Part shown: in pieces, positions 11,822 through 42,375 of the stretch
Position numbering within the stretch: the stretch's first letter is position 1
How the letters are laid out: the number at the start of each line of letters is the position of its first letter
Assembly: GCA_007692585.1 (NCBI GenBank)
Contig: REBU01000105.1
Location: 197-64,196, forward strand
From: Paracoccaceae bacterium
GTDB taxonomy: Bacteria; Pseudomonadota; Alphaproteobacteria; Rhodobacterales; Rhodobacteraceae
Direction: 5' to 3'
Length of the DNA stretch: 64,000 nucleotides
The notes under the pieces: generated by a model
The model's database searches: none
What the model saw: the letters and a program-made list of their open reading frames with translations, nothing else
What the model was told of the DNA's origin: nothing
Translations under genes and position numbers: made by a program

Positions 11822-11869
11822 GGCAATCCCCAATTCGGTTCGAAGCGGCGCAGGCATGCGCCCGCAGGA

Positions 11870-16845: not shown

Positions 16846-19271
16846 GCGCTCTCCCTCACATCAAACTCGATCGCGCCATTTTCAGGCCGGTTGGGATCAC
16901 TGTCGCAGCGCAAGATCGCCGATTTTGCAGGACGGATCACGCCCGCCTGCAATTCTGCGGTCGGGGCAATGCCGCGCGGGTGAAAGCGCGTCGCGCGGAC
17001 CGAGGCCACCCCATCCACCGCCATCGCCGCCGCATAGAGCGCCGAGAGCCAGAGCGGATCGCCAAAACTGAACCGGTCAGGGTGGAAAAAGCCACGCAAC
17101 CCGTCCAACCGCAGGCGCGATGCGAAGATGTCGATCAGCCGGGCGCGAATGTCCGCGCTGACATAGCCCGGACGCAGACAGACCAGAAGCGCGATGTCCA
17201 GCGGTCGGAACACCGGGTCGCGCAGTTCCAGATCATACCCGGCCAGGCGGTAAAATTCGAGATGGTCCAGAAGCCTGCGCGCGAAATCGGCATCGCTGCT
17301 CACGGGCTGGCCGTCGCGGCGGTCGACAGTGACGAAAACCGTATACCAACTGCCGGTCCAGCGAAATTCGGCCCGGGCGCGCTGGACCTCGGGGAAAGCC
17401 TCGGCGGCCGCGCGCCAATCGGCCTCGGTCACCGCGCGGTTCTGGGTGCGAAAGGCTTGCGGCGCGTAACGGCGGATCTCGGCAGCGGTCTCGCGGGCCT
17501 GCCCGCCTTGCGCGGGGAGCGGGTTGCGCAGGCTGACGATGCCGGTCAGGGCTGTGACGACAGTGCCCAGACTGTCAGGGCCCAGATTGCCCGATGGGCC
17601 GCCACCAACCCTGACCCGCGCCGAAAAAGCCGCGTTCAACGGTGGGCTTTTGCCCTGCACATCATCGCCGAAACGCAGCCTGGGCAGTGCGTCTTCGGCA
17701 GGTTCCACCACGAAATCCTGCGCGAAACGGTCCGCGCCCAGCAAATCGCCCTGCGGACGCCAATGCGCCGCACCGTCGAAGAGCAGCACCTGCGGCAGCG
17801 CCTCGGCGGGCGTCTGGATCAGCAAACCTGTCGCGGGCAAACGCCGCGCTTCCGCGTCGTCATAAGGCGCAGCATAGGCAATATCTCCACGGTCCAGGCG
17901 CGGGCGAAAGGGGTGCCCGGCCTGGGCGCGCGCAGGGCTCAGACCGGGCGTGCCCGACAGGCTGACTCCGTGATCGGCCAGCACCACGTTGCCCAGCGCA
18001 TGGGCGGCCTCGATCAGCGCAGGAACGCCGCTCGTCACGGTTTGCGCGCGCAGACACAGGTCGAAGGGCAGCGCATCTGCGGCGGCCCAGCCTACGGTCA
18101 GGATCGGAGTGCCGTCCAGCGGATCGGTCCCGACCTCAACCTCGGTCAACCGCACGGCTGCGCGCTGCGCGGGGTCGCGGTCTTCCTCGCGCCCGGTCGC
18201 AAGACCGACGGTCTGCTCAAGGATCAGAACGTCGCCCCGCTGCAAGCCCATCCCCGGCGTCCGGCGCAAGGTGGCCGCAGTTGCGCCACGCGGCAGGCGG
18301 GTGACGGAACCGGACCAGTCATGCAACGCGATGACGCTGTGATCCGCCGCGAGTGTCAGATCATGCATCGTCTCGAACACGGCCCGCGCGCCGCGCAAAG
18401 CCTCTGCGGCCGCCGCGGGCGCAAGGATCACGGGCGCCCGCGCGCCCATCGCCGCCAAGACAGTGCCGCGCGGCAAGCTCGCCCCATCGGCGGCTGTCCC
18501 CGCTGCGACCTCGACTGTGACCCAAGCGCGGGCGTTGCAACCTTCATGAACGCGGTAATCCAGAAGCCGGGCGTGACGGCGCAGCGACGCGCGCAACCGT
18601 GCCGTGCCAAGATACGCCTCGGTCGCAGCCGCATCCTGCATGTAGCTCAACCGGTCCGCGGTCCAGGCCAACGCTTCCACCACTGTGATCAACGCGTCGG
18701 CAGGCGATCGCTCGGTCCAGTCGGGTATCGTCACGCTCATCCGGTCCAGCATCACGCCGCGAAAACTGGCCCAGTCCTTGGCAAGATAATCCGCAACCGC
18801 TCCGCCCCCCTGCTCCGGCGCGCCCATCAGAGGGGCCGGAGCGACACAATCGAGATCGGAGGGGCAGTTTGCCTTGAACCGGATCACAACACGCGACAGC
18901 ACCGGATCAAAACCCGCGGGCGGCGCGTCACTGCCCGGTGCGGCCACCAGTGACAGCGTGTAATCGGAAAAATCACCTGCGACATCCGTGCGCAGCGTCA
19001 GAACCCGCCCGCTCACGGCCTGAATCCGCACCCCGATCGCAGTGACCCGCACGCCGCCCGTGATCGCGATCTGCGCCGGTCCCAGCAAGGCCAGCCCTGC
19101 CGGCACCGCGCCCGGCTGGCCCGGCAGCGGGTGGACGAAAGTCACCTCCAGCGTACGCTGATCCACGCTTGTGACCTCGGCCGTCTCGATGCCGTTCACG
19201 GTTCCCGCACTGCGGAGCGCGCGGATCCGGTCGGCCCGGTTCTGCACCATCATTGCCAATGCGCGCGTCAT
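16842..19271 (-). CDS. second gp6/Baseplate_J-like baseplate wedge protein
   Basis: 809 aa. DYLAKDWASFRGVMLDRMSVTIPDWTERSPADALITVVEALAWTADRLSYMQDAAATEAYLGTARLRASLRRHARLLDY is paralogous in pattern to the downstream 925-aa protein. Confidence 0.65.
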   Translation of the reverse strand: MTRALAMMVQNRADRIRALRSAGTVNGIETAEVTSVDQRTLEVTFVHPLPGQPGAVPAGLALLGPAQIAITGGVRVTAIGVRIQAVSGRVLTLRTDVAGDFSDYTLSLVAAPGSDAPPAGFDPVLSRVVIRFKANCPSDLDCVAPAPLMGAPEQGGGAVADYLAKDWASFRGVMLDRMSVTIPDWTERSPADALITVVEALAWTADRLSYMQDAAATEAYLGTARLRASLRRHARLLDYRVHEGCNARAWVTVEVAAGTAADGASLPRGTVLAAMGARAPVILAPAAAAEALRGARAVFETMHDLTLAADHSVIALHDWSGSVTRLPRGATAATLRRTPGMGLQRGDVLILEQTVGLATGREEDRDPAQRAAVRLTEVEVGTDPLDGTPILTVGWAAADALPFDLCLRAQTVTSGVPALIEAAHALGNVVLADHGVSLSGTPGLSPARAQAGHPFRPRLDRGDIAYAAPYDDAEARRLPATGLLIQTPAEALPQVLLFDGAAHWRPQGDLLGADRFAQDFVVEPAEDALPRLRFGDDVQGKSPPLNAAFSARVRVGGGPSGNLGPDSLGTVVTALTGIVSLRNPLPAQGGQARETAAEIRRYAPQAFRTQNRAVTEADWRAAAEAFPEVQRARAEFRWTGSWYTVFVTVDRRDGQPVSSDADFARRLLDHLEFYRLAGYDLELRDPVFRPLDIALLVCLRPGYVSADIRARLIDIFASRLRLDGLRGFFHPDRFSFGDPLWLSALYAAAMAVDGVASVRATRFHPRGIAPTAELQAGVIRPAKSAILRCDSDPNRPENGAIEFDVRESA

Positions 19272-19624
19272 GCGGGCACCTCCACGACCAGCGTCTCGGC
19301 TGCGCCATCCGCAGCGCGGTAGCGCACCAGCACTTCCAGCAGCCCATCACCCGCCTGAACCACGACCTCGACGATCTGCGCCCTTGTCCCGAGGCTCTGT
19401 TGCAGTGCCGCATGTGCCATCGCTTCCAGCGCAGTGGCCAGCGCATCGCCACTGGGCGAAAAGACCAGCGCCCCGACCCCGGCGCCGAATTGCGGGCGCA
19501 TCACCCGCTCGCCGGGCGCGGTCAGCAGGATCTGCTCGATCAGATTGCGCAGATGGCGTCTGGGATCGGCGCGCGCGGTCTGGCCGGCATCATCAAAATC
19601 GAAAGGGAAGGTCATGTTTGTCAT
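19268..19624 (-). CDS. GPW/gp25-family baseplate wedge protein (Afp9-like)
   Basis: Start at MTNMTFPFDF (ATG 19622-19624, overlapping the PAAR-like stop). Carries the gp25 signature RRHLRNLIEQILLTAPGERVMRPQFGAGVGALVF. Confidence 0.85.
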   Translation of the reverse strand: MTNMTFPFDFDDAGQTARADPRRHLRNLIEQILLTAPGERVMRPQFGAGVGALVFSPSGDALATALEAMAHAALQQSLGTRAQIVEVVVQAGDGLLEVLVRYRAADGAAETLVVEVPA

Positions 19625-19956
19625 GTCGCGATCACCCTTGTCTGATTGACAGTGACACTCGCGGGGCCTTGCGGCGCCCGGGTGGCGGCCAGCGCCAGAC
19701 TGGGCGAGGTCTGCAGCAAAACCGGTTGCCCGTTCACCAGCACACGCGCCGCAGGCATCAGCCACTGCACCGTGACACAGGGGCTGGGCGTAGGCCCGGG
19801 CAACTGAAAGGCGCAGCCCGCCACCACAGAGCTGTCCGCCAGCGTCGCGGCAGGCATCCCGCTGACCAGCACACGCGTATTGGACGAAATCGTGGTGACC
19901 TGGCCCCCATGCGGGCACATGGCGGTGGCTCCGACGTGGTAGATGGGTCCGGGCAT
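19621..19956 (-). CDS. PAAR-like spike-tip protein (Afp10-like)
   Basis: 111 aa. MPGPIYHVGATAMCPHGGQV...VSGMPAATLAD...VNGQPVLL. Identified by small size, position just after the spike gene and a PAAR/DUF4280-like repeat pattern. Confidence 0.6.
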   Translation of the reverse strand: MPGPIYHVGATAMCPHGGQVTTISSNTRVLVSGMPAATLADSSVVAGCAFQLPGPTPSPCVTVQWLMPAARVLVNGQPVLLQTSPSLALAATRAPQGPASVTVNQTRVIAT

Positions 19957-20508: not shown

Positions 20509-21653
20509 ACCGAAACCTCTTGGGTAAAAGATTCAACTGCATTGCGCGTCAACCGAAAGCTCTGCTTGAAACTGCCGCGCTGCAGCGTGGACGTGACTGA
20601 TTTGACGTAATAGGTGCCATCATGGGTCGGACCGCTGCCGCGCACTCCGACCAGGCCACGCGGGGCGAGAAGCCCGCCGTAACGCGCAACATCCAGACTG
20701 CCCGAGGCCGAGATCACATCCGCCCGCTCGGCAGCCCGCGCCATCCCGCGCATGGCCGCAGACAGGGCGTCGAATTTTGCCGTGCTGTCATCATCGCCTT
20801 GCGGCGCCAGGTTGCTCAGCAATGTGTAGCTCAGCGGCACCGGTGGTTTGCGGCCAAGCGGCGGATTGAGCGGGCCGATATCAGGCACGGGGATCGGGAT
20901 CGGCAGTTTTGAATTCTCTTCCTGATAGTAGAACACAAAAACCGACTTGCGCATCCCGTCAAACGAGATGTTGAGCGCGTCCACATTGCTGGCGCCGTCA
21001 ATATTCACACTCAGCGCAGGCTGGACCCGCCCGACCTTGATCTGCGGCCCCCAATAGGCAAAAGCCATGCCCGCGACCGGCCCCGGCTCGATGTAGAAGA
21101 CATAGCCGACCTGCGCGGCCAAGCGCCGGGCATAGGCCAGATCGGTGCCGCGTTGCTTGGGAATACGGTTCAGTGGGTTGGGCTGGGCGACAAGGACCGA
21201 GGGAACGACCTTGGGGATCAGACCATACATCGCGTATTTCGCGACCATCACGGCCACCCGGGCGGACGGCGGCATGGGCCAGGGGAAGCCTGAAAAGTCG
21301 ATCAGATCCATCACTTTCGACAGATCCGATCCGGTAATGGTCAGCGTGCTGGCCCCGGGATCGGAACTGGCGGCCAGCTCTGAAGTCGTGATCACCCCGT
21401 CCATCAGCACAGTGTCCTGCCCGTTCATGCCGACGACCAGAACAACCCTGCGGGGGGCGTCGAAAAAGCCCGCGGTCAGGTAGTCCATCAGCACAGGACC
21501 GCTCCGCGCGGCATGGAAGACGAGCTGAAAACCGCTCTGGCCGATATCGTTTTGCGTCACCTGCACACTGATCAGGGCATCAATCAGCTCTCTGGGGGCC
21601 GGTTCAGGCCGCACCGGCCCGATCAGCAGTTTCAGCGTGATCCCCTCGATCAT
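20505..21653 (-). CDS. phage late control gpD / gp27-like baseplate hub (Afp8 N-terminal equivalent)
   Basis: 382 aa. Carries QRGTDLAYARRLAAQVGYVFYIEPGP (the gpD/VgrG-type motif) and lies directly upstream of the spike gene. Confidence 0.7.
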   Translation of the reverse strand: MIEGITLKLLIGPVRPEPAPRELIDALISVQVTQNDIGQSGFQLVFHAARSGPVLMDYLTAGFFDAPRRVVLVVGMNGQDTVLMDGVITTSELAASSDPGASTLTITGSDLSKVMDLIDFSGFPWPMPPSARVAVMVAKYAMYGLIPKVVPSVLVAQPNPLNRIPKQRGTDLAYARRLAAQVGYVFYIEPGPVAGMAFAYWGPQIKVGRVQPALSVNIDGASNVDALNISFDGMRKSVFVFYYQEENSKLPIPIPVPDIGPLNPPLGRKPPVPLSYTLLSNLAPQGDDDSTAKFDALSAAMRGMARAAERADVISASGSLDVARYGGLLAPRGLVGVRGSGPTHDGTYYVKSVTSTLQRGSFKQSFRLTRNAVESFTQEVSV

Positions 21654-22018
21654 ACGCCGCCCCCCTCGGGATCCGGGCCGGTTTCCGGCGCGGGGTCCGG
21701 CTCAGGTTCTGGCACCGGCGGGGGCGGCTCTGCCGCGATCCGCAATCGGCGGCCCAGCGTTGCGGTCAGCTCTGTGGGGTCGAAGGCGCGGTTGGTATCG
21801 GCGATCCGCCACCAGAACGCAGCCGTGCCCAGCGTCGCAGCCGCGATCCGGTCGATCCTGTCGCCCTCGCTGACCCGGTGCGCGCCGATCTCGGGGGCGA
21901 CGGGCTCGGGGATGAACCGGCGGCGCAGATAGCGCACCATCACCCCGTCAGGCCCCGCCCGTTGGGTGATGGCGATGCCTGAATAGCGGCTTGTCTGATC
22001 GAACTTGTCTGCGCTCAT
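21650..22018 (-). CDS. LysM-like baseplate protein
   Basis: HRVSEGDRIDRIAAATLGTAAFWWRIADTNRAFDPTELTATLGRRLRI fits the LysM-like module seen fused to Afp7-type proteins. Ends in a Pro-rich tail. Confidence 0.6.
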   Translation of the reverse strand: MSADKFDQTSRYSGIAITQRAGPDGVMVRYLRRRFIPEPVAPEIGAHRVSEGDRIDRIAAATLGTAAFWWRIADTNRAFDPTELTATLGRRLRIAAEPPPPVPEPEPDPAPETGPDPEGGGV

Positions 22019-22031: not shown

Positions 22032-22682
22032 TCATCCCAGACTATCCGCGCCCAGCGCCGCCAGACCGCCGGTCGTACCGCGTGCGGAAAGCGTCTCTTT
22101 CAGCCGGTGTTGCACCATGCTCAGACTGCCCCCGCGCGAGGCGAAAGGCAGATCGTTGACGCTGAGCGCGCGCATACCCAGCGTGATCCGCGCCCGGATC
22201 GGATTGAGCGCGGGATCAAACATTTCTTCCACCACCGAAAAGTCGGTGATCCGCACTGGCAGGATCCGCTTCGCCCCCCAGACGAACAACACCAGCGGCG
22301 CGACCACAGGCAGCACCTCGATCATGCCGCGCGCGGCAAGCGCGTCTTGCGCGGCCAGACTGTCGGCACTCGGATACAGGATCGTCTCCAGCGCGGCGAT
22401 ATCGCCTGCGACCCCGATCTCGCCGGAGGTGGCATTGCCCGCAGCCAGCCCGTCACTGGCATCGAGGACGGCCTCGAGATTGATCGTCTCGACCGGCGGG
22501 CCGGACAGGCGCAGCGCTTCCAGACGATCCCCGTCCTCGCCCGCGCCGCGCATCGAGACCGAGCGGTTCAGCATCTCGGGGTTGTACTGCAACGCAATCG
22601 CGCGGATCACCGACCCGCTGTCGCGCTCCATCAGGACAAGACCCCCCTTCAGCACGCGGGGCGAGCGGCTGTAACCTGTCAT
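22032..22682 (-). CDS. tube-initiator / CIS tube-like protein (Afp7-like N-terminal domain)
   Basis: IALQYNPEMLNRSV...INLEAVLDASD...APLVLFVWGAKRILPVRITDFSVVEEMFDPALNPIRARITLGMRAL is the pattern of contractile-injection tube N-terminal domain proteins. Confidence 0.7.
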   Translation of the reverse strand: MTGYSRSPRVLKGGLVLMERDSGSVIRAIALQYNPEMLNRSVSMRGAGEDGDRLEALRLSGPPVETINLEAVLDASDGLAAGNATSGEIGVAGDIAALETILYPSADSLAAQDALAARGMIEVLPVVAPLVLFVWGAKRILPVRITDFSVVEEMFDPALNPIRARITLGMRALSVNDLPFASRGGSLSMVQHRLKETLSARGTTGGLAALGADSLG

Positions 22683-22685: not shown

Positions 22686-24107
22686 TCAGTTTCCGATCAT
22701 GTCGCGGACCCTTTCATAGATCCAGAGCATCCGTTTCTCGTCTATGATGGTAAGTGTGGGGGGCGGCTCGGTGCCGAACCTGCGGTCAAAAAGCTCAAAC
22801 CTGTAGGGATGTGCATTTGACAGATAGGTTCCCACCATGATGTCGGTGCCGAATTGCGCGGCTAAGGCCGCACGCTCGGGCGAGAGGCCCAGTTGCAGGT
22901 ATTTCAGGCCCCAGAGGTTGAAATGCCCTGTAATGGCGTCATGGTCGCGCAGGTCGAACTGAACCCCGCGCGCGGCGGCCTCGCGTGCGACTGAACCCCA
23001 GTCATAGGTGGCGTCAAAGCGGTTCGGCGGCTGCGTCCAGAGATTCGGCGCAGGCGCAGGCCGCCGCGGTCCGGGCGGATCCGTCACAGCAGGGTCAAGC
23101 CTCTGGAGTGCCAGATCGAGGCCAAGCGCGGCAGGCGTGGTCGCAGACAGGAACGGCAGCTGCGGATCAGACGCACCGGGCGGCCGAAGCTGCAACGTGC
23201 CCGGCGCAAAGAAACTGTAGGTCTGCCGGCGGGGGAACAGCGAAAACGGACCGGGCATGGACAGGAAACTGCCATCCTCCGGCGTGATCAGATCGACGCC
23301 CGCGCGCCGATTATGGGGCGGCTCGCCGAAACTGTCGGTTTCACCATGCGCGTGCAGAAAAAAGCGCGTCCCGGCAGGCAGAAGCGGCAGCAACGCATCG
23401 CGCACCGCCACTGCCCTGTGCGCCGACAGGTTGCGGTTATACTCGGCAGGGCCTTCCTGGCTGGCATAGCCATGGATCATCACCACCAATTCACCAGCCT
23501 GCCCCTCGGCCATGGCGGCAAGGGCCGCGCGGCCCTGCGGCGTCAGCGTCGCGCTGTCATGCGCGAACAGGGTGTGATGATCCTCACTTCCCGGCGTGTC
23601 CATCGTCTCGAACGGCGCGTCCGGGGGGCGGCGACCGATGCCGGTCTGTGGCGCGTCCTCCTCGTCGCATTGGGTCAGGGTCGCGCCGCCGGGGAGGGCT
23701 TGCTGGACCGTATGGGCGATCTCATGGCGCATCCGGTGGGCGGCTTCCGGCGTCTCGGCTCGGGCATCTGCCGGGGTCATCGCGATGTCATGGCCCTGCG
23801 CCAGTGCCCGCGCACCGCGCGCATCCAGCGCCGCGCGCGCGGGCGCGTCGTCATGCAGGCGGACCCGGCTCAGATCCGCGCCAAGCCGCGCTTCCTCGGA
23901 TCGGCGCAGCGCGTCAGGCAACGGACGACCGAAGCCCGGAAGCGATGCTGCGCGCGGGCCATGGGGCGCGGGGCCAAGCCATGGGTCTGAGCTCTGCCGG
24001 GACGCTGCGCCCTCAGCCTCTGCCTCGGCGCGCATCCGCAGGGCGTGACGTGGCGGGACAAATCCGCTCCGGAGGTCTTGGGATATGGCAGGACGCTCTC
24101 TCATCAC
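22686..24107 (-). CDS. DUF4157 (eCIS core domain) + OmpA-like peptidoglycan-binding domain + unknown C-terminal domain; cargo, effector or anchor candidate
   Basis: The DUF4157 signature is GRPLPDALRRSEEARLGADLSRVRLHDD...HEIAHTVQQ, with HEIAH encoded at 23712-23726. The OmpA_C-like part is FAHDSATLTPQGRAALA...IHGYASQEGPAEYNRNLSAHRAVAVRDALL...NRRAGVDLI (about 23286-23576). I do not recognise the last ~190 aa. The start could be GTG 24107 or ATG 24104. Confidence 0.7.
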   Translation of the reverse strand: MMRERPAISQDLRSGFVPPRHALRMRAEAEAEGAASRQSSDPWLGPAPHGPRAASLPGFGRPLPDALRRSEEARLGADLSRVRLHDDAPARAALDARGARALAQGHDIAMTPADARAETPEAAHRMRHEIAHTVQQALPGGATLTQCDEEDAPQTGIGRRPPDAPFETMDTPGSEDHHTLFAHDSATLTPQGRAALAAMAEGQAGELVVMIHGYASQEGPAEYNRNLSAHRAVAVRDALLPLLPAGTRFFLHAHGETDSFGEPPHNRRAGVDLITPEDGSFLSMPGPFSLFPRRQTYSFFAPGTLQLRPPGASDPQLPFLSATTPAALGLDLALQRLDPAVTDPPGPRRPAPAPNLWTQPPNRFDATYDWGSVAREAAARGVQFDLRDHDAITGHFNLWGLKYLQLGLSPERAALAAQFGTDIMVGTYLSNAHPYRFELFDRRFGTEPPPTLTIIDEKRMLWIYERVRDMIGN

Positions 24108-27100
24108 TCAAAGCCCCGACAGGTTCAGGTTGGTCAGCCGCGCACCACGAACCCCGGCCGTCAGCCGCTCTGGCGTGAACGCCTGGAAAAATAGCTGCAC
24201 ATCGTGAAACCCTGTCAGATGCAGGGCCGCAGTTTCAGCCGTGACGCCGCCGAATGTCAGCGGACCGTTCGGACCGACCTCGATGCCGACAGTCCCGATG
24301 GCGAAAGTCAATTGCGAATTGGCGGCCGTCGGGTTGTTGATCAGGTCGCCGGTGAAATCCAGATCGATCGCGCGGCCCGGACTGCCGCCATTCACGACGA
24401 TACTGCCCGCTGCGCCAAGGTCGATAGGGGTCTGCGCAAGGGTAAAGTCGCCGACGATATTGCGCAGTGAAACAGGCGGTGGATCAGACGGCCCGGATGC
24501 GCTGTCATCGGAGTCGGAGTCGGACTCGGGCAAGCGCCGTCCCAGCGTTTCCAGCGTCGCTTCGCGGTTGGTGCCCGCACGTTCCCGCTCGGTCGCGTCC
24601 AGCTCCTCCCAGGCGAAGACTCCGAGTCTATAGGCAGGATTACGGCCATAAAAAGGGTTACGCCTGAGCTGTCCGATAAGTTTTCCATAATTCAGCTGGA
24701 CGACCAGCCGGTCGCCCTGAACATCGAAGACAATATACTCGCCCGCGCTGACGGTGCTGAGGATCTGATCGAAATTCACCGCCCCATTCGTCACCCGGAC
24801 CATGATGCTCTCCGTGAAGTGCAAAGGCGCATAATTGACGTCGAAATTCAGCGTGCCGTTGAGCGCGCGCAGGAAATCGAGGTTCTGCTGCGGCGCGTTC
24901 GGATCGTTTTCGCCGCTGACCAGCGCGCGAACATCTGCGATCTCGATGCGGGCTTCGGTCACGATCAGTTCCGGGATGTTCAGGCGGCCCGCCACCGGGG
25001 TGAATGTGACTGCGCGCGCCCCGCCCGCGCCGGGCAGGCTCGCGCTTTCAATATGCAGCTTGATGCCTTTGTCGGGCATCTCATAAGTCAGCCCCGACAG
25101 AACACCGCTGTCCAGCGTGACCGTCCCATCGCGATTGCGCGACAGGACATTGAGCCCGATACCCGCATTCGGAGCGCCGAAGCCTGCGGCCCCTGCCTCG
25201 GTCAAATCGAAAACATGCTCGCCAGCCTCTCCTGCGGTCCCGATGATGTTGGTTGCGGTCAGCCCTTGCAGGCTGAAGGCCATCCCCTGCGCCGCCAGAA
25301 AATCAAAGGTCAGCCCCGAAAGCTGAAGATCCGCCGTCGCGTTCAACATCCCCGTGATGTCCAGCGCAAGATCGTCGCCGGTGATCGTATCGATCTGCAC
25401 CAGACCAGTCGGCAGCCAGCTCTCGGGGTTGCTTGGGTCGGGCGTGATGCGAAACGCGGTCTCGGCAGGCTGCGGCTGCAACCTGAGATTCGACATGATC
25501 ACCGTCTCCGTCTCGGGCGCGCGCACGATCAGGTCGCGCGGCGTCGTTCCCTGCGCCGGATCACCCAGCGCCTTGTAGAGTGTCAGCGTGATCCCGCGCA
25601 TCGTGGTTGTGGGCACTTCGAGCCCGTGGATCTCGACCGCCCCGACAGGCTGCGCGGCATTGTCCGGGTCAAGGGCGAATTCGACATGCGCTGTGGTGCC
25701 GGTCAGCACCACCCGACCGCCCGTTTCGGGCACATCTATGCGCATCTGCTCGCTGGTGAACAGCAGCCGGTCCAGCGTGATCGTGGGGATTGTCAGATTT
25801 GGGACGATGATCCGGTCGCGGGTGCGGACTGCGCCCTGGACTGCCAGATCGCGCACAGAGACATCGACGGTGAGGCTGTCATTGATCTGACCGGCAACAC
25901 GGGCGTCCAGATCGGCGAGGTCCAACTGCTGGGTGCCATCGCGCAAAAAGGCAAGCTCCAGACCCGCCGCATCCACCAGCACGCCCAGGTTCATGTCATC
26001 CTCGATCAGACCAAAGGCCGCATGGGCGCTGGCCAGTCCGATCGTGCCGGCATCGCTCTGCCCGCCGGCCGCAACCCCGCCGCGCGCGGACCAGGCAAGG
26101 TTGCGCACGGCCAGTCCGACAATCTGCAAGGGCGGGGGCAGCGGCGTGCCCAGCAGGATCGCATCCTGCACCAGCTGCGGGTCTTGCCGGATGACGATCT
26201 CTCGCGACCCATCGCGGATCGTGATGTCCTCGCCGTCGATCTCGCGCACGCGCAGCGTCTCGATCTGCAACCGCGGATTGCCCTCCTCGCCGGTATCGAC
26301 ACTTGCATCGACGGTTATTCCGCGCAAATTCAACGGGCGCGCGCTGAAGATTTCGCGGGCTCCCGCGCGGAAATGGAAACGCGACAGTTGCGCGCTTGCA
26401 ATGCCAACCCCGACAAGCCGGGTTTCATCCCCCTGTCTCTCGATCCGGCCAGTGATCATGCCACTTGCGAAATCCACCTCGCCCTGCGGCATCCGCGCCG
26501 TTCCCGCACTCAGCCGCAGCCCCCCTTCGCGCGCGCGGCGGCCATCCGCCAGCTCTACGGCATGACCGAGTTCGATGATCTGTCCGCCATTCTCGACGAA
26601 GGCGATCGAGAGATGGGCACCCGTCAGCTGCGCCGAGCCGAAGTCAAGCACATCCTCCATCATCGCAAGACCGCGCACATTGTCGATCTGGTCAAGCTGC
26701 ACCTGACCCAACAGGACCGGAGCCGCTCTCTCGCCCGGTGGGAAGGCGATGGACAGCCCGGACGCGTCGATCCCCAGAAGCGCGCCCCCGTCGATCTCGA
26801 AAATGCTGCTCTGGTAGCGGCCTTGTGCATCGGGGGCGAGCGGATCCGGCGCGTTATGGGTGCTTGCGAAACCCAGATAGCCTGCTTCCAGCCGCTCGAT
26901 GCGGAATTGGCCCAGCTCGGCCCGGATCATGCGGTATTGGGTCGGATCTTCGGCTGTCTGCTCGAAATGCAGATCGGCCGTGACGGCAATGCCCGTGGCT
27001 GTCGTGGCACCATTCGAGTAGATTTGACTGATGCGGATGCCGCCATGTTCGGCGGCTGGCACATCTTCCCGGCTGGTCATGACGAACCGGTCCAGAAACA

Positions 27101-30100
27101 GCCGCTCGATGGTCAACCTGTCGATTGCGATATGGGTGTTCGAGACCATGAAACGGCCCGACATCTCATCTGCCTCGATCTGCCCGGCCTCCGTTGCGCC
27201 GAAGCGGGCATCGCTGAGCGAGAGGCGGCGCAAAAGGCGCCGTCCGTCCGCACCGCCCGTCCCTTCGATGGTAACCCCCCGGTCCCGCGCAGCGCCCATG
27301 TCAAAACCGCTCTCGCCCAGAGGGCCAAGCCCGGTGATCCGAACCGCCAGATCTTCGACCACCCCGGACCGTGCGGCAAAACGCTTCTCCCACAGCAGAT
27401 ACAGGCTGATCACATCGGCGCGCTGCGCCACCAACCGCGCGCGCGCATCGCCCTCGGCCAGACCGATCTCTGCATCGAGCCGCGCCAGAAGCCGCTCGAA
27501 GCCGTCGATCACGTCCAGAGCCTCGCGCAAGGCCGCGATTGCGGCGGTATCTGTGGCGGTGCGCTGGTCAACGGGCTTGGCCATCGCCGCTGCAATCTGG
27601 GCGTCCACCCAGGCCCGGCTGGCCCGACCGTGCAGCCCGTCCACGCCAAGGGTCGCGGCCTGCGCATCCAGCCTGCCCGCGCGGGTGTCGAGGGCGATCT
27701 CGAACCCCTCTGCCCCGACCCGGTCCGCGCTCAGCGCCATGTCCTGATGCAAGAGATCCGTCACCGACAGTTGCGCCCCCGACAGACCAACCCGCGCCAG
27801 ACGCGCCTCGAGATCGGCGAACCCTCGCAACCCGTCGGCCACACCGAGCGACAAGGTGACATTGCGGCCCTCGGCGCTGCCAAGGCTGAACGCACCGGCA
27901 CGGATCGCGGCCCCCTGCGCGCCGCTTTGCGCCGGATCGCCGGTCGCCTGAAACGCTTGCGCCGCAAGGATCAAGCTGCCAGCTTCGGCCGAGAACCCAA
28001 GCTGGGCACCTTCGACTTGCAGATGGTGCAGGTAGACGGCCTCGCTGGCCAGAAGCTGGGTGCGCAGCCGCGCCAGTTCGTCCGCCTCCGCGCGCGGCAG
28101 ATGCGTCACCCCGGCCCGGGCGAGTTCCAGATAGCGCTCGGTGGCCGCCAGACGCTCTTGCGCAGCGGCTTTGGCCGCGACAAGCTGCGGGTCCCAACTG
28201 CGCTCCTCCAGCGCTGCGCGCGCGCGCTCCAGAGCGGCCTGCGTATCTGAAAGCTTGGGGATCGCGCCCCGGATCGTCACCTCCTCGAGCGTGAAATCCG
28301 GCAGGTCCAGCCGGAACTCGGCCGGATCGCGCCGCAATGCGGGGGCGGTGGCATTGCGATGTGCGGGCCCCTGCACAATCCGGCCCAGCGCTTCACTATC
28401 GATCAGAAACGCCAGGAGACCCGCAGAGCCGGCACCGCGCCCATGCAGATCGGTCAAGGTCGGCAGATGGCCATTGATCGCGCCTGACAGCCCGGTGACA
28501 ACCAGCGCGCCTGCGTCCAGCGTCATGCCCCCTTGCGCATAAGGGGCCAGAACTTCCTGCGCCGCGGCAAGGCGGGCTTGATCCGCTGGCAACAGATCGT
28601 CCAGCGCGCCCAGTTGCGCGACCACAGCGCGCGCGTCAAGGATCTGCCGCGAGAGGTCTGTCAGCGCCGCCACACGCTGCGCCAGATCTGCGACCCGCGT
28701 CTCCAAGGCCGCGCGTTGGGGTCCATCCGGCAGGCGCTGCGCCGCGACCATCAGCCGGACCTTCTGCCCAACATTGGCATCCATGCTCTCAAACAGGATC
28801 TTCAGGTAATCATCCACTGTGCCCGCAATTCCCAGACGCACATTCTCCAGGCTCGCCTCGGCCACATGCTGCCCGCTGGACATAGTGAGCCCGGTCAGCT
28901 TCAACGTGTCGAAACTGACCACAAGTGGCGACGGCACCTGCGGAGTGGTCAGGCCATCGGTGATCTCCTCCACCCGGCCGCCCATGGTGACCATGAAGCC
29001 CAGCGGACGCAGCAACCAACTGAACGGCGCCGTCAGCACCGCGCCCACCCTCGCGCCCGTATCCGCCGCGCGCATCTCGCCCGACAGCGCTTCGCGGCCA
29101 AGGCGGATGTTCAGCCCCGTGACCTCGATGCGGTTGATCGCCGTCATCGCGTCGCGCTGGATCAGCAGAGTGTCGGTCAGATCCAGACGGCCGATGCTGA
29201 GCACCATATTTGTGGGCCGGTGGCCTTCGCGCGTCCCGATATTGAGGCTCATTGCAAGGGTCTCGACCATGCCGCCCTCTGCCGCAAACAGCAGGTCGCC
29301 CATCGCATAGCGCACCCGGGCGAGATCCAGCGCGCGGGCTTCCAGCTCCAGCACGCCCCGACGCCGGTCCCAATAGGCGCGGTCGATGTAATTCACACCG
29401 CGCTCCGCCGCGCGCGCGGCCACCAGCGCATCGCGCCGTTCCTGGCTCAGGGATGGGTCGGTGCCTTCCGCCAGCCGGAACCCCATGATGGAGCCGCCCA
29501 TCAGGTTTTGCAGCGATACGCCGTCAATTCCCTGTCCGCCGACGCTGCGCCCGAACATCACATTGCCGACCAGCGCCGCGCCTTCGCGGCTATGATAAAG
29601 CAGGCTGATCAGATCGCCGAAGGCCTCGAACGCTCCCGCAATCCCGGAGCCGAAGCCGTTATATTGCCAGGACGTGGCCTCGGGCGACCATGAGACGCGC
29701 CGCGTGCCATCAGGGCGCTCCGAATTGAACAACATCAGCGGCGTGACGATGGCCGCCACGAAGTCGGGGTCCATGTAGCGTTCCGGGTCCAGATCATGGA
29801 CTTCGCGGCTGCGCAGGAACACCCACTCCCCCTCGCCCGCGGCAACCGCCATACGGATCAGCCCACGCAACCGACCTGCCGTCGCCACCCGCCAGAGCGC
29901 ATCGTCCAGAAGCTGCGCCTGGATCGAGGCCAGATCCGTGCGTCCCTCGCCGCCGCGGTAGAAATTCATCCCCAGCTCTTCGCGCATCTCGGCCGATAGC
30001 GCGCCCGAGATCTTTTGCGCGATCGCATCGCCGTTTTCTGCCAGAAGGGCCGCGCGCATGGCATCGGGCAGGGTCTTGATCAGGTGCCAGGCAAGAAAGG

Positions 30101-31520
30101 CTTCCTCTGCCGAGATCGTGTTGAAGATCCAGAATTCACTCAACAGCGCTTCCGCCAGCAGGACATTGTCGGCCGGACGGCGCAGGCTGGCCACCCGCAA
30201 CAAGGTCTCGATCCGGGTGAATTGTACGCCACCAGCAGCGCCACGGTCATTGGCCTCGCGCAGCGCGCGCACCGGGAGGCCGCGCAACAGCCGGTCCAGC
30301 AGGTCGGTCCGATGGCGTGGCGGCTGCAAGTTGTGGACAACGCCCTCGAAGATCTGTGGCCGTCCCATCAGCCCCGCGAGCCGGTCCAGCGCTTCCAGCC
30401 GGGCCGCGTCATCAGGATCTTCCAGCAAGGCGTGAAGGGCGGTGATCGTGGCCAGACCGCCGGCATCGTCGCGCGCCGCCATAATCGCAGCCGCGCGGGC
30501 CTGCCTGCGATCCGCCAGCGCGTCACGCGCGGCGGTTCCCGCAGTGGCTGGATTGTAAAGCTCACGCGCACGCTCGCGAAGATCCGTGTCCAGTAATTCA
30601 GCCACATGCGTGCCCTGCACCGGATGCCTGCGCAGCGCGGTCAGCGTCGCCTCGGTCAGCCCCATGTCGAAAATCGTGCCGAGGCAGGCAATCTCCTGCG
30701 GTGTCAGGCCCGAAAACTCCATCCCTTCAAACAGATCCGCACCGGACCCGATGATCACCTCGGGCTCGGTCACGCTGAAGGCCGCAAGGATCACGCTGCG
30801 AAACCGGGCAAAATGGCCCGGCGAGACATTGTCCACAAGGGTCGCGCGCTCATCAGGTGTCAGCGCCGAAAACACGGCCTGCTGGATCTCCAGCGGTTCG
30901 GCCTCAACGAGCGTGAACATCTCGCGCACGGCGCCATCGGTGACCCACAAGAAGCCAAGCCAACCGCGCAGCAAGCGCTTGATGCGCGCGATCTCGGTGG
31001 CGAATTCGGTTTGCACCAGATCCGCGAGCGAGGTGTCATGCAGGGTCGTATCGGGCGCGATCCGGGCACGGGGCCGGTGCAAGACGCGCCCCTCGGCGGC
31101 GCGACGCCCTGCGTCCAGCGCTTCTGTCTCGGCCAGGGCCAGACGTGCGCGGGGCAACACCCGGCCCGGCGCGCGGGTCTGGGCGAGATGGGTCAATTCA
31201 TGGGCCAGCAGCGCGCGCGCCGCCCCGTCACCGGCGCGCAGACTGGCGCGCAGACTGGTGTCGCAAAGCTGGACACGCCCCGCTGACAGTCGCCCGCGCA
31301 GGCCCGGACGATCCAAATCAAGCTGCACCAGATCAGGGTCGGAAGGAAGCCCCAACGCCTGGGCGAGCCCGGTGAACCCCGCGCTCTCCAACGCGGCAGT
31401 CTTGTCCGGCAAGAGCGTCAGACCCAGCGCGACCGTGACCGGCGCGCCATTGTGCGCCAGCACAGGCTCCGCGCTCTCAGCCCTGGGTGCGGGCAAGGGA
31501 AGACGCACAGCCTCGTTCAT
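24108..31520 (-). CDS. giant (2470 aa) DUF4157-family protein of unknown function; prime cargo/effector candidate
   Basis: Uninterrupted 7413-nt ORF. The N-terminal region ends in ALLAHELTHLAQ, with HELTH encoded at 31188-31202. The remainder has no catalytic motif I recognise. It shows many short amphipathic strand-like repeats (IEVTGLNIRLG, LKLTGLTMSSG, LAVRITGLGPLG, LTIERLFLDRF, IETLRVREIDGEDITI, IVGLAVRNLAWSA, VEIHGLEVPTT). An acidic linker ESDSDSDDSASGPSDPPP lies at 24474-24527. Its ATG overlaps the upstream small-ORF stop. Confidence 0.75.
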   Translation of the reverse strand: MNEAVRLPLPAPRAESAEPVLAHNGAPVTVALGLTLLPDKTAALESAGFTGLAQALGLPSDPDLVQLDLDRPGLRGRLSAGRVQLCDTSLRASLRAGDGAARALLAHELTHLAQTRAPGRVLPRARLALAETEALDAGRRAAEGRVLHRPRARIAPDTTLHDTSLADLVQTEFATEIARIKRLLRGWLGFLWVTDGAVREMFTLVEAEPLEIQQAVFSALTPDERATLVDNVSPGHFARFRSVILAAFSVTEPEVIIGSGADLFEGMEFSGLTPQEIACLGTIFDMGLTEATLTALRRHPVQGTHVAELLDTDLRERARELYNPATAGTAARDALADRRQARAAAIMAARDDAGGLATITALHALLEDPDDAARLEALDRLAGLMGRPQIFEGVVHNLQPPRHRTDLLDRLLRGLPVRALREANDRGAAGGVQFTRIETLLRVASLRRPADNVLLAEALLSEFWIFNTISAEEAFLAWHLIKTLPDAMRAALLAENGDAIAQKISGALSAEMREELGMNFYRGGEGRTDLASIQAQLLDDALWRVATAGRLRGLIRMAVAAGEGEWVFLRSREVHDLDPERYMDPDFVAAIVTPLMLFNSERPDGTRRVSWSPEATSWQYNGFGSGIAGAFEAFGDLISLLYHSREGAALVGNVMFGRSVGGQGIDGVSLQNLMGGSIMGFRLAEGTDPSLSQERRDALVAARAAERGVNYIDRAYWDRRRGVLELEARALDLARVRYAMGDLLFAAEGGMVETLAMSLNIGTREGHRPTNMVLSIGRLDLTDTLLIQRDAMTAINRIEVTGLNIRLGREALSGEMRAADTGARVGAVLTAPFSWLLRPLGFMVTMGGRVEEITDGLTTPQVPSPLVVSFDTLKLTGLTMSSGQHVAEASLENVRLGIAGTVDDYLKILFESMDANVGQKVRLMVAAQRLPDGPQRAALETRVADLAQRVAALTDLSRQILDARAVVAQLGALDDLLPADQARLAAAQEVLAPYAQGGMTLDAGALVVTGLSGAINGHLPTLTDLHGRGAGSAGLLAFLIDSEALGRIVQGPAHRNATAPALRRDPAEFRLDLPDFTLEEVTIRGAIPKLSDTQAALERARAALEERSWDPQLVAAKAAAQERLAATERYLELARAGVTHLPRAEADELARLRTQLLASEAVYLHHLQVEGAQLGFSAEAGSLILAAQAFQATGDPAQSGAQGAAIRAGAFSLGSAEGRNVTLSLGVADGLRGFADLEARLARVGLSGAQLSVTDLLHQDMALSADRVGAEGFEIALDTRAGRLDAQAATLGVDGLHGRASRAWVDAQIAAAMAKPVDQRTATDTAAIAALREALDVIDGFERLLARLDAEIGLAEGDARARLVAQRADVISLYLLWEKRFAARSGVVEDLAVRITGLGPLGESGFDMGAARDRGVTIEGTGGADGRRLLRRLSLSDARFGATEAGQIEADEMSGRFMVSNTHIAIDRLTIERLFLDRFVMTSREDVPAAEHGGIRISQIYSNGATTATGIAVTADLHFEQTAEDPTQYRMIRAELGQFRIERLEAGYLGFASTHNAPDPLAPDAQGRYQSSIFEIDGGALLGIDASGLSIAFPPGERAAPVLLGQVQLDQIDNVRGLAMMEDVLDFGSAQLTGAHLSIAFVENGGQIIELGHAVELADGRRAREGGLRLSAGTARMPQGEVDFASGMITGRIERQGDETRLVGVGIASAQLSRFHFRAGAREIFSARPLNLRGITVDASVDTGEEGNPRLQIETLRVREIDGEDITIRDGSREIVIRQDPQLVQDAILLGTPLPPPLQIVGLAVRNLAWSARGGVAAGGQSDAGTIGLASAHAAFGLIEDDMNLGVLVDAAGLELAFLRDGTQQLDLADLDARVAGQINDSLTVDVSVRDLAVQGAVRTRDRIIVPNLTIPTITLDRLLFTSEQMRIDVPETGGRVVLTGTTAHVEFALDPDNAAQPVGAVEIHGLEVPTTTMRGITLTLYKALGDPAQGTTPRDLIVRAPETETVIMSNLRLQPQPAETAFRITPDPSNPESWLPTGLVQIDTITGDDLALDITGMLNATADLQLSGLTFDFLAAQGMAFSLQGLTATNIIGTAGEAGEHVFDLTEAGAAGFGAPNAGIGLNVLSRNRDGTVTLDSGVLSGLTYEMPDKGIKLHIESASLPGAGGARAVTFTPVAGRLNIPELIVTEARIEIADVRALVSGENDPNAPQQNLDFLRALNGTLNFDVNYAPLHFTESIMVRVTNGAVNFDQILSTVSAGEYIVFDVQGDRLVVQLNYGKLIGQLRRNPFYGRNPAYRLGVFAWEELDATERERAGTNREATLETLGRRLPESDSDSDDSASGPSDPPPVSLRNIVGDFTLAQTPIDLGAAGSIVVNGGSPGRAIDLDFTGDLINNPTAANSQLTFAIGTVGIEVGPNGPLTFGGVTAETAALHLTGFHDVQLFFQAFTPERLTAGVRGARLTNLNLSGL

Positions 31521-31747
31521 CGCTCCAGTGCCTCGATCAGGGCGCGCGCGGCCGCCGCGCCAATACGCTCAGGCCCATGCGCAGATGCAGCGGTCAGGAT
31601 TGTGCGCTCGGGCAGGACCGGCGGTCCCGACAGGCCCGCGCGCGCAAGTTCGGTGCGAAATCCGTCCAGAACGCGCTGGCTGTCACCGGCTGAAAACCCG
31701 TTGAGCGCGACGGCGCCGATCTCGAATTGCAGGGCCGCGCGGGTCAT
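31517..31747 (-). CDS. small hypothetical protein (76 aa), translationally coupled on both sides
   Basis: MTRAALQFEIGAVALNGFSAGDSQRVLDGFRTELARAGL... Its ATG (31745-31747) overlaps the ATPase stop, and its stop overlaps the giant gene's ATG. I recognise no motif. Confidence 0.45.
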   Translation of the reverse strand: MTRAALQFEIGAVALNGFSAGDSQRVLDGFRTELARAGLSGPPVLPERTILTAASAHGPERIGAAAARALIEALER

Positions 31748-33612
31748 GTCCAGCCCCCGGTCTCGGCCTCGGTCAAGGTCTTGTCGAGTTTGGCGCATTC
31801 CGCCTCCGCCGCGTGGGCGAGATCGGCCATGCGGATCGGACGGTCTGCCTCTGCGGCCAGAAAAGCCGCCGTCAGCGCAATGTTGCGGATCGCCCCGCCG
31901 GCGACAGAGAGCTTCGCCAGCAACGCAGGATCCAGCCCCTCGGTGCGCGCGCCTGCCGGGAAAGCACGCTGCCAGATGCGCAACCGTTCGGCATATCCGG
32001 GAAAGGGAAACTCCACGACAAACCGCAGCCTGCGCGCGAAAGCCTTGTCCAGCGCCGCGCGGAAATTCGTCGTCAGGATGGCCAGACCGCGATAGGTTTC
32101 CAGCCGCTGAAGCAGATAGGCGACCTCCATATTGGCGTAGCGGTCGTGACTGTCACGCACTTCGGATCGCTTCCCGAATAGCGCATCCGCTTCGTCAAAA
32201 AGCAGGATCGCGCCCCCGTCTTCCGCTGCATCGAACACGCCCGCGAGGTTCTTCTCCGTCTCACCGATATATTTGCTGACCACCTGGCTCAGGTCGATGC
32301 GGAACAGATCGAGGTCCAGATCGCGGGCCAGCACTTCCGCCGCCATGGTCTTGCCCGCGCCCGAGGGTCCGGCAAACAGCACACTGACCCCCAAGCCGCG
32401 GCCTGCAGAGCTGGTAAAACCCATCTGTCCATAGACCCGCTGGCGCTGGCGCACCTGCGCGCAGATCGCGCGCAGGGTGCGGGTTTCGCGCTCGGGCAGG
32501 ATCAGATCATCCCATCCCGCACCGGACACGATCTCTTGCGCAAGATCGCGCAGGCGCGGGCGCGATACGGCGCGCGCGGCGTTCCACAAAGTCTGGCGCG
32601 CGGCCTCGGGCGCCGCATCGAGCAGCGGCGCGGCGGCCTGGGCGGCTTCGGTGACATCGGAATAGCCCAGCGTGAAATGCCGCGTCACCGCGTCCAGCGC
32701 CCCGTTGAGCCGTGCTGCGCGCTGGCCCAGCTGCGCGCGCCACAGCAAGTCCTGTTCGGCCGGGGCGATCGGGGCAAGCCGCACCCGAAGGCGGGGCCGC
32801 GCGCAGGCACTGGCCGCGCCGCATCCGTGCACCATCAGCATGCCCGGCCCGGAGGCCAGCTCAGCCAACGCAGCGTGTGGCATCGCGCCCTCAATCAGCA
32901 AGGCCCGTCCGGCAAGCACCACCTCGCGCGTCCACAGCGTTGCAAAGCCGCGCCGCTCGACCGCGCTTGCGCCCAGATCAGGACCATGCAGCGCCCAGAC
33001 AAAACGCTGGCCCACCGCCGCCGCGGCGGCGGCAAGGGCACGCGCATCGCGCGGATCATCGCTGTCGATCTCAACAAGTGGCGGGGTTGCAGACGCCGTT
33101 GCGCGCCAGATCTGCAGCGCGTGCTGAGCCAAGGCTTCCGGCAGCGCTTCGGGCCGGGGCAGCGCCGTGAGCATCGGGGCCAGCCGGGTGTCCATCGGCG
33201 CCAGCCCCACGAGATGATGCAGGATGCGCTCATCCAGTGTGATCTCGGCCCGTGCGAGCGGCCGTGCGTCGGACAGACGGATCAATTCCCACCGCCGCAA
33301 CGGCCCTTGCGGCGAGAGCGCACTCCAATGCGCGCCCTCCAGCCGGGCGAGCGGCAACGCGAAAGACAGCACGCTGCGCTCTTCGGGGTCCAGCTGCCTA
33401 AGCGCCGGGGCCAGCGCCTCATCCACCTCGATGCCGGCGGCCAGCACCAGAATATCCTGCTCGAAAGGGCTCAGGCCGAAGGCATGGACGATCTCGCGCA
33501 GGCGGGGATGGTCGGGCAAGGGCGCATCCCCCCCCTCCAGCCTGGCCCGCGCAGCAGCGCAGAGCCCGCGAAGCGCCGCGAAACCGTCCCGCTCTGTGGC
33601 CATGAGCGTCAT
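31744..33612 (-). CDS. AAA+ ATPase (Afp15-like CIS assembly ATPase)
   Basis: The C-terminal AAA module has Walker A GPSGAGKT and Walker B ILLFDEADALFGKRS, followed by ANMEVAYLLQRLETYRGLAILTTN. A ~350-aa non-ATPase N-terminal region precedes it, as in Afp15/Pvc15-type proteins. Confidence 0.85.
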   Translation of the reverse strand: MTLMATERDGFAALRGLCAAARARLEGGDAPLPDHPRLREIVHAFGLSPFEQDILVLAAGIEVDEALAPALRQLDPEERSVLSFALPLARLEGAHWSALSPQGPLRRWELIRLSDARPLARAEITLDERILHHLVGLAPMDTRLAPMLTALPRPEALPEALAQHALQIWRATASATPPLVEIDSDDPRDARALAAAAAAVGQRFVWALHGPDLGASAVERRGFATLWTREVVLAGRALLIEGAMPHAALAELASGPGMLMVHGCGAASACARPRLRVRLAPIAPAEQDLLWRAQLGQRAARLNGALDAVTRHFTLGYSDVTEAAQAAAPLLDAAPEAARQTLWNAARAVSRPRLRDLAQEIVSGAGWDDLILPERETRTLRAICAQVRQRQRVYGQMGFTSSAGRGLGVSVLFAGPSGAGKTMAAEVLARDLDLDLFRIDLSQVVSKYIGETEKNLAGVFDAAEDGGAILLFDEADALFGKRSEVRDSHDRYANMEVAYLLQRLETYRGLAILTTNFRAALDKAFARRLRFVVEFPFPGYAERLRIWQRAFPAGARTEGLDPALLAKLSVAGGAIRNIALTAAFLAAEADRPIRMADLAHAAEAECAKLDKTLTEAETGGWT

Positions 33613-40626: not shown

Positions 40627-40631
40627 GCCGT

Positions 40632-41803: not shown

Positions 41804-42048
41804 GTTCAGCTCTTTTTTTATCTGCCCTTCACACAGTTAGCACGAAAAGCGAACATCTGCCAAGGGTCGGTTGCAGCACGCCTCGCAAATCGCAAGGCGC
41901 AGCCTGCGAGGCCACACCACCGGCTATGCTGCAGATGCATAATGGCTTTGCAAAAACTCATCCTGCTCGCGGCGATGATTTCAGCATATCTGCCTTCAGA
42001 TCGCCTACGAATTCGGCGGTTTGAAAAGTTTTCTTCTTGGAGGCCGAA

Positions 42049-42258: not shown

Positions 42259-42290
42259 TCACCCTGACATCCCTGCCATGTATTGTATGA

Positions 42291-42316
42291 AGCCGCCCTG
42301 TTCGGGGCGGCTTTTG
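42291..42316 (+). terminator. rho-independent terminator after the DUF1127 gene
   Basis: AGCCGCCC (42291-42298), loop TGTTCG, GGGCGGCT (42305-42312), then TTTT. Confidence 0.65.
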
Positions 42317-42375
42317 CATGTGACGCAGCGATCTGGACCATGGCGGCGCGCGGCCTGCAGGGGCCGCGCCTGACC

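Follow-up and report, generated by a model that had tools for sequence, protein, structure and literature searches.

DUF4157 is the most widespread marker of the cargo of contractile injection systems (CISs). Zhang et al. (2012, Biol Direct 7:18, PMC3482391) named the domain the PVC-metallopeptidase (PVC, Photorhabdus virulence cassette), a releasing peptidase N-terminal to variable toxins, and listed as 'Tox-OmpA' the PVC-delivered proteins that carry an OmpA-superfamily domain. We analyzed a protein of this composition that is encoded in a 64,000-nucleotide stretch of DNA from a Paracoccaceae bacterium (contig REBU01000105.1; the whole stretch is called the window below). Its open reading frame (ORF), at 22686..24107 on the minus strand, encodes DUF4157, an OmpA-like domain and a C-terminal helical domain. 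Judged from gene order across phyla, the gene belongs to the fixed, syntenic core of the Tme-type CIS lineage and is not a variable effector. The combination of DUF4157 and OmpA has been on record as Tox-OmpA since 2012, so that the architecture itself is known; the general picture of CIS biology is unchanged. What is new is the core-gene status in the Tme-type lineage, the helical domain that accompanies DUF4157, and the Ser found where the OmpA-like domain would canonically have Asp.

Compared with the published description, the protein resembles Tox-OmpA in that a metallopeptidase-like domain with HExxHxxQ at the N-terminus precedes an OmpA-superfamily domain, and in being encoded with a phage-tail-like PVC or extracellular CIS (eCIS) apparatus; Alphaproteobacteria are among the groups in which Tox-OmpA was described (PMC3482391). 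In the proteins of 2012 the OmpA domain was always at the extreme C-terminus and was hence read as the toxin. In contrast, 198 residues follow the OmpA-like domain of our protein, including a 90-amino-acid (aa) proline-rich linker and a conserved 108-aa helical domain, and the gene is a fixed syntenic core gene, unlike the polymorphic Tox-OmpA cassettes. With the domain internal in this family and in the DUF4157-OmpA proteins sampled from other lineages, the stated 2012 basis for OmpA as a toxin is removed, and the case for the OmpA domain as the toxic part is weakened.

Other DUF4157 proteins provide further points of comparison. Those of AlgoCIS, in which DUF4157 stands between an N-terminal (NTD) and a C-terminal (CTD) domain, fill the tube lumen and leave it on contraction (PMC8894135). 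Cgo1 and Cgo2 (PMC8894135; PROCIS preprint, 2026) share the NTD-DUF4157-CTD layout with our protein and, like it, are encoded within a CIS cluster having an AAA+ ATPase; Cgo1, at 498 aa, is also similar in size. They differ from it in having no OmpA-like domain, and their luminal location and ATPase-dependent loading are experimental, whereas the present family is known here from sequence. The periplasmic toxicity of SalCgo2 depends on HExxH (PMC13266070). In Streptomyces lividans, the small DUF4157 protein Sle2, which was tested against spike-complex proteins, binds to the N-terminal end of Sle1, a tape-measure-like effector (PMC13277306), and Danov et al. (2024, PMC11297309) proposed DUF4157 as a possible chaperone in trans. 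EAT14 from the same study, which consists of DUF4157, LysM and a transglutaminase, resembles our protein in the fusion of DUF4157 to a wall-binding-type module; it uses LysM and ends in a proven toxin domain, whereas our protein uses an OmpA-like fold and has no toxin domain.

Gene order in the Tme-type lineage

What defined the Tme-harbouring CIS group was an ORF of great length headed by DUF4157, together with conserved synteny across phyla (Nagakubo et al. 2024, PMC11126660). In the window, our gene is part of a minus-strand CIS cluster that extends over about 9.1-38.9 kb. In the sense of transcription, the cluster encodes a sheath protein, a gp19-type tube protein, two proteins without assignment, a Pvc16-type cap, an AAA+ ATPase, a 93-aa ORF, a 2470-aa Tme-like protein (24108..31520, minus strand), the DUF4157-OmpA protein, a 216-aa tube-initiator-like protein of the CIS_tube family (22032..22682, minus strand), a 122-aa baseplate-wedge-like protein, a 382-aa tail or hub protein, gpV/VgrG, gp25, two Baseplate_J proteins, a 761-aa protein and a DUF6519 protein. 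The sequence-only reading of this DNA had proposed both the ORF and its CIS context, and both were correct: the 473-aa ORF is present, and sheath, tube, Pvc16, ATPase, tube initiator, VgrG, gp25 and Baseplate_J genes are on the same strand. The GTG start codon of the gene abuts the TGA stop codon of the upstream 2470-aa ORF, and the tube-initiator gene starts 3 nt after its stop codon.

This arrangement recurs in distant genomes. Gene neighbourhoods of homologues were taken from exact-protein look-ups; a scan of contigs with the family alignment was dominated by generic HExxHxxQQ DUF4157 matches, and only one locus found in that way (L001) holds a true family member. Five homologous loci were obtained, from Paracoccaceae Fryx2, Streptomyces, Bryobacter, Actinorhabdospora and a single metagenome contig on which the giant gene is in fragments; the gene order of the window matches L081-L084, and L085 is the locus with the fragmented Tme. 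All five share the order Pvc16, AAA ATPase, an ORF of 78-90 aa, a giant protein of 2336-2666 aa, the homologue of our protein and a tube initiator of 216-218 aa. Further on, all five have an ORF of ~110-120 aa, an ORF of ~380 aa, VgrG, in some cases PAAR, gp25 and the baseplate genes. In four of these loci, the homologue's start and the giant gene's stop overlap by 4 nt. The synteny thus spans Alphaproteobacteria, the monoderm Actinobacteria, Acidobacteria and one metagenome, and on this basis we assign the gene to the core of the lineage.

The Tme cluster of Streptomyces davawensis (PMC11126660) resembles the window in the order of ATPase, small ORF, giant Tme, the gene at our position, tube initiator, hub, spike, PAAR and gp25. 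The lineage described there includes Actinobacteria, Proteobacteria and Chloroflexota, which agrees with the distribution of the homologues that we found, Chloroflexota falling outside our sample. The S. davawensis Tme has transmembrane helices and a C-terminal EndA-like nuclease. The Tme-like protein of the window has neither the DRGH motif nor strong hydrophobic segments and therefore differs from it at the effector end. By gene order only, the S. davawensis counterpart of our gene is BN159_7577, situated between Tme (7576) and the tube initiator (7578), with the PAAR tip at 7582. The main text and the accessible supplementary files of PMC11126660, a paper that characterises Tme, make no mention of the gene at this position.

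The succession of DUF4157, an OmpA-like domain and other C-terminal domains also recurs in other lineages, and seven of 12 sampled DUF4157-OmpA loci have CIS core genes no more than 10 kb away. Two of these lineages, Williamsia (L004) and Verrucomicrobiota (L009), have sister CIS loci with the gene order of the window and no giant Tme. There, the slot between the ATPase and the tube initiator (about 9600-13600) holds a DUF4157-OmpA protein of 591 aa (L004) or 501 aa (L009) with other C-terminal domains, followed by unannotated sequence of roughly 2 kb and 3-4.5 kb, respectively. With such proteins in it, the slot behaves as a cargo slot of the lineage. The family offers a natural test case, a DUF4157 protein that has no toxin domain and is a core gene beside a tape-measure-like effector, in a lineage that spans monoderm and diderm phyla and includes the genetically tractable S. 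davawensis.

Domain composition of the protein

The ORF encodes 473 aa from its GTG codon, plus a stop codon. An ATG codon at 24104, one codon after the GTG, would give 472 aa, and the database copy (P0001) starts there. There are ~40 full-length homologues with the same architecture (430-510 aa, E-values down to 1e-159), from sources that include Paracoccaceae (55% identity), Halieaceae, Streptomyces and Actinorhabdospora. Conservation in the family was assessed in an alignment of 27 sequences from several phyla, and an AlphaFold2 model was built on 27 homologues. The mean predicted local distance difference test score (pLDDT) of the whole-protein model was 80, and the confident parts were a helix at residues 19-35, the DUF4157 domain, the OmpA-like domain at 175-275 and the helical C-terminal domain. 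Fragments of the region turned up in four sequencing runs, all of them of metagenome DNA and none of RNA.

The DUF4157 domain (also eCIS_core or PVC-metallopeptidase) comprises residues 62-137 (23697..23924, minus strand), which match PF13699 with an E-value of 5.5e-18 and a score of 65.4 bits against a cut-off of 22. HEIAH, within HEIAHTVQQ, corresponds to residues 128-132 (nt 23712-23726), the position previously given for it. The zincin residues of HExxHxxQ (H128, E129, H132 and Q135) are invariant in all 27 sequences. A conserved acidic linker with a GIGxxPP motif follows (residues 138-177; 23577..23696, minus strand), defined from the alignment and the model; P162 is invariant, G158 and P161 are conserved in at least 90% of the sequences, and the C-terminal half of the linker is well ordered in the model.

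Ahead of DUF4157 is an N-terminal leader (residues 1-57; 23937..24107, minus strand), delimited by alignment, model and hydropathy. Its predicted helix at residues 19-35 (nt 24003-24053) holds a degenerate ExEA(D) motif in which E28 and A31 are invariant in the family; the family form is AExEA, and several members have EREAD or EAEAD. Of 66 unrelated DUF4157 ORFs taken from a wide range of phyla (loci L001-L080), 50 carried a fuller, strongly conserved motif, [IV]GxPGDxYExEADxxAxxV, 100-250 residues upstream of HExxH and outside the Pfam model of DUF4157. This motif may be part of a cargo loading signal. No signal peptide, lipobox, twin-arginine motif or membrane helix was found in the protein, the maximal Kyte-Doolittle hydropathy over 19 residues being 1.14.

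The OmpA-like domain of the 'Tox-OmpA' type (residues 178-275; 23283..23576, minus strand) was recognized by Pfam, a profile search of Protein Data Bank (PDB) sequences, Foldseek and the alignment. Residues 180-259 match PF00691 with an E-value of 1.5e-10 (41.7 bits, cut-off 27.2), and residues 175-275 are confidently modelled as a beta-alpha-beta-alpha-beta-beta fold, with 10-residue block means of pLDDT of about 82-98 over residues 161-280. Foldseek against the PDB gave matches with a probability of 1.00 to 9uu2 (template modelling score, TM, 0.76), to TagL (7bba, third-best, TM 0.74) to Pal (4b5c, TM 0.70), to AbOmpA (3td5) and to MotB. The PDB-sequence profile search matched only OmpA-like domains, and these only within the OmpA-like region of the protein. 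The DUF4157 and OmpA-like domains had both been named from the letters of the sequence, and both assignments held, the second in the hidden Markov model (HMM) comparison as well as in the structural one.

The OmpA-like domain has the signature HGYASxEG...YNxNLSAHRA...HGETxxFG...NRRAG, in which G213, E218, G219, N224, N226, L227, A229, H230, R231, A232, N266, R267 and R268 are invariant across the 27 sequences. In the HMMER alignment to Escherichia coli OmpA, GYASxEG...LSAHRA pairs with GYTDRIG...LSERRA. The carboxylate of diaminopimelate (DAP) is bound by an Asp/Arg pair, D241/R256 in E. coli OmpA and D271/R286 in AbOmpA. We take the Arg of this pair to be the invariant R231, which is aligned with the Arg of RRA in E. 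coli OmpA, and on this alignment the position of the canonical DAP-binding Asp (GxTD) is that of Ser216. Most other DUF4157-linked OmpA-like domains that we sampled share G[YF]ASx[ED]G, including those of Williamsia, Acidobacteriota, Rhizocola, Verrucomicrobiota, Flavobacteriales, Aquimarina and Xanthobacteraceae, and two (Arenicella and Mucilaginibacter) have the canonical GHTD. Most DUF4157-linked OmpA-like domains thus belong to a subfamily that has no canonical peptidoglycan-binding Asp. Ligand binding by the domain, under strong constraint, is plausible from this conservation; peptidoglycan binding of the canonical type is not established. The non-canonical pocket is a new lead of this analysis.

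The last ~190 aa had been described as unrecognised. They are not a single domain; they consist of a proline-rich linker (residues 276-365; 23013..23282, minus strand), recognized from composition and the model, and of a five-helix domain of ~108 aa (residues 366-473; 22689..23012, minus strand), recognized from the model and a profile search. The linker contains 21% Pro and is poorly predicted, with pLDDT values of about 48-60; all ~90 aa are probably disordered. The structure prediction that had been proposed as a check on the C-terminal region gave a confident result: residues 355-473 modelled alone formed five helices with a pLDDT of 86.5 and a predicted TM score (pTM) of 0.78.

The helical domain has the signature DW...RG...LGLSP. 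A Pfam search of 20 members gave scattered single matches only, NCBIfam and PHROGs scans of the whole protein gave no match in this region, and Foldseek found no match in the PDB (best E 2.2) or among the viral structures of BFVD (best E 1.3). A profile of the domain, searched against 1.84 billion representative proteins, matched 240 clusters at E <= 1e-3, of which 115 reached E <= 1e-10. Among the best 148 of the 240 matches, the domain was C-terminal to HExxHxxQ in 68, as in our protein, and 130-230 residues N-terminal to it in 24 (proteins of 366-2193 aa); the remaining 56 were short and had no HExxHxxQ. PF13699 was found in 31 of 35 matches outside the family of our protein, and the other domains of such proteins included PT-HINT, AHH nuclease, Aspzincin_M35, an anthrax-lethal-factor-like domain (ATLF), PG_binding_1 and OmpA. 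Where a protein had PT-HINT, AHH, Aspzincin or ATLF at its end, the helical domain preceded DUF4157, and it was present in only two of 80 sampled DUF4157 loci. From these architectures we conclude that it is an unannotated companion of DUF4157 that can be placed before or after it. Toxin-tipped proteins have it in the N-terminal 'trafficking' region, and its place there, N-terminal to DUF4157 and ahead of the toxin domains, makes it more likely a DUF4157-partner or docking module than a toxin.

Two kinds of profile match were set aside. The 56 or so short matches would suggest stand-alone helical-domain proteins of ~200 aa; the one that was checked (P0055) lies 26 nt from one edge of a 1.5-kb contig, with a gene the size of a tube initiator after it, and from this case most of these matches are probably contig-edge fragments. 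A protein with Tudor repeats (P0129, 12 stretches) was a false positive.

One locus with the helical domain (L168:7103-22310) is a CIS locus of another lineage, with CIS_TMP. At its 3' end are three DUF4157 genes, one encoding the helical domain, DUF4157 and Aspzincin_M35, one DUF4157 alone, and one DUF4157 and PG_binding_1, along with a ParA-like gene, an AAA ATPase gene and a TIR-domain gene. The protein with PG_binding_1 is a wall-binding-type fusion like ours, differing in that its fold is PGB1 and not OmpA-like.

Proposed function and its alternatives

We propose, with roughly even confidence for and against, that the protein is an accessory cargo that is co-expressed with the Tme-like protein, loaded through its leader, expelled on contraction, and active at the target wall through its OmpA-like module and zincin. 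The abutting or overlapping stop and start codons indicate that it is translated as a unit with the upstream Tme-like giant and the downstream tube initiator. By analogy with other DUF4157 cargo, the disordered leader with its ExEA(D) helix, followed by DUF4157, would direct the protein into, or onto, the tube and spike by way of the cluster's AAA+ ATPase, and sheath contraction would expel it together with Tme. The OmpA-like module would then dock on peptidoglycan or peptide stems in the target envelope, and the intact HExxH zincin would process the protein itself or cleave a local envelope substrate. The helical domain would serve as a DUF4157-partner or docking module and not as a toxin. 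A leader of the cargo type favours an ejected accessory protein acting at the target wall. The sequence-only reading had suggested a cell-wall-directed effector, and this is broadly consistent with the cargo-type N-terminus, the precedents of ejected DUF4157 proteins and the fusions of DUF4157 to wall-binding modules.

Several points weigh against an ejected accessory cargo. What the locus provides directly is a co-expression signal and a domain content, and loading, ejection, wall binding and proteolysis are steps that we infer. With its fixed length and position and no toxin domain, the gene looks more like a typical structural or assembly gene than like one for cargo, and the divergence of the protein (55% identity to the Paracoccaceae orthologue) is between that of the structural genes (56-86%) and that of Tme (44%). 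At position 216, at least 90% of the family have Ser and not the canonical Asp, with the invariant Glu218 nearby. In S. davawensis, pull-down of the His-tagged spike tip enriched 7576, 7578 and 7580 and not BN159_7577 (PMC11126660), which, by analogy with that positional counterpart, would speak against a stable association of our protein with the spike.

Some of these features would suit a non-ejected adaptor or chaperone for Tme, an explanation that we consider possible but rather unlikely. While the machine is assembled, DUF4157 and the helical domain would bridge Tme to the tube initiator and the spike hub, with the OmpA-like fold reused for interaction with a protein or small ligand and not for binding peptidoglycan. 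Tme and the tube initiator invariably flank the gene and are translationally coupled with it, its product is conserved in size and has no toxin domain, and the canonical peptidoglycan-site Asp is missing; the binding of Sle2 to the N-terminus of Sle1 (PMC13277306) and the proposal of DUF4157 as a chaperone in trans (PMC11297309) point in the same direction. However, the ligand-site region of the OmpA-like domain, including R231, is the most invariant part of the protein, which argues for retained ligand binding. Tme carries a DUF4157 of its own, sister loci that have no Tme keep a DUF4157-OmpA protein in the slot, and the failure of the S. davawensis positional orthologue to be enriched with the spike complex tells against an adaptor as well. 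The conserved ligand site and the intact DUF4157 motif would also be expected of a stand-alone, non-catalytic antibacterial toxin, in which the OmpA-like domain, once delivered, would tie up the peptide precursors or stems of peptidoglycan and upset wall synthesis, and DUF4157 would be only the releasing peptidase. Both this architecture and this hypothesis have been published (Zhang et al. 2012, PMC3482391), but we find it decidedly unlikely for our protein: the argument of 2012 needed an OmpA domain at the extreme C-terminus, whereas 198 residues with a folded domain follow it here and further domains follow it in other lineages; no immunity-like gene is adjacent, the next gene being the tube initiator; and the gene is fixed across phyla, not polymorphic.

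The sequence-only reading had also raised the possibility of a TagL-like anchor that tethers the machine to the envelope of the producer, and we regard this as highly improbable. TagL of the type VI secretion system of enteroaggregative E. coli (PDB 7bba, 5m38) and our protein share the OmpA-like fold, 7bba being the third-best structural match, and both are associated with contractile machines. The match is nevertheless to the generic OmpA fold and is not TagL-specific. TagL is an inner-membrane protein whose domain is in the periplasm of the producer, whereas our protein has a cargo-type N-terminus and no signal peptide, lipobox or membrane helix, so that its domain cannot reach the periplasm of a diderm producer by itself; and the gene has the same position in diderm phyla and in the monoderm Actinobacteria. 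A further reading, speculative and on balance unlikely, is that the protein and the giant Tme-like protein form a phage-ejectosome-like assembly in the target envelope. In such an assembly, the remodelled pocket (Ser216, Glu218, His230, Arg231 and His254) would pin the expelled complex to the wall, and the helical domain would be a general, position-independent CIS docking module. If this were true, the docking module would explain the recognition of a subset of DUF4157 cargo and could be reused for loading foreign cargo.

The CIS cluster around the gene

The upstream partner, the 2470-aa Tme-like protein, has a degenerate N-terminal DUF4157 with HELTH at residue 107 (PF13699 E 0.0098, below threshold). 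No ExEAD leader and no DRGH nuclease motif were found in it, its maximal hydropathy is 1.5, and beyond the N-terminus it has no Pfam match and no match to PDB sequences. The AAA+ ATPase, of the Afp15/Pvc15/Alg15 class, is encoded at 31744..33612 on the minus strand and is the presumed cargo loader, a role taken from the PROCIS preprint. Between these two genes, the 93-aa ORF (31517-31798, minus strand) overlaps the 3' end of the ATPase gene. It is 43% identical to the Paracoccaceae copy, has a gene of 78-90 aa at its position in all five homologous loci, and has no Pfam or PHROG match; its product might serve the giant Tme-like protein as a chaperone.

Downstream of the tube initiator, the 122-aa baseplate-wedge-like protein (21650-22018, minus strand; phrog_7145, E 1.6e-5) ends in a Pro/Glu/Asp-rich tail (PPPPVPEPEPDPAPETGPDPEGG). 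The gp25 ORF (19268-19918, minus strand) encodes 216 aa, of which only residues 119-201 are the gp25 domain; the N-terminal 115 aa have no Pfam match. At this site there is a separate gene of 112-114 aa in Paracoccaceae and in both actinobacterial loci, with weak PAAR/DUF4280 matches in the actinobacterial ones, and the gp25 gene of Bryobacter is likewise long (229 aa). The last large gene of the cluster encodes the DUF6519 protein (9092-11857, minus strand; E 6e-54), which may be a fibre or receptor-binding component and whose C-terminal part has weak CarboxypepD_reg, Big_1 and MG3-like matches.

The cluster adjoins the housekeeping genes ruvB, ruvA, ruvC, prmA, msrA and priA (39589-46831, minus strand). 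The RuvB of the window shows 99% identity to its counterpart in a Natronohydrobacter sp. metagenome-assembled genome (Rhodobacterales), and the producer is a diderm alphaproteobacterium, a Natronohydrobacter-like member of the Rhodobacterales.

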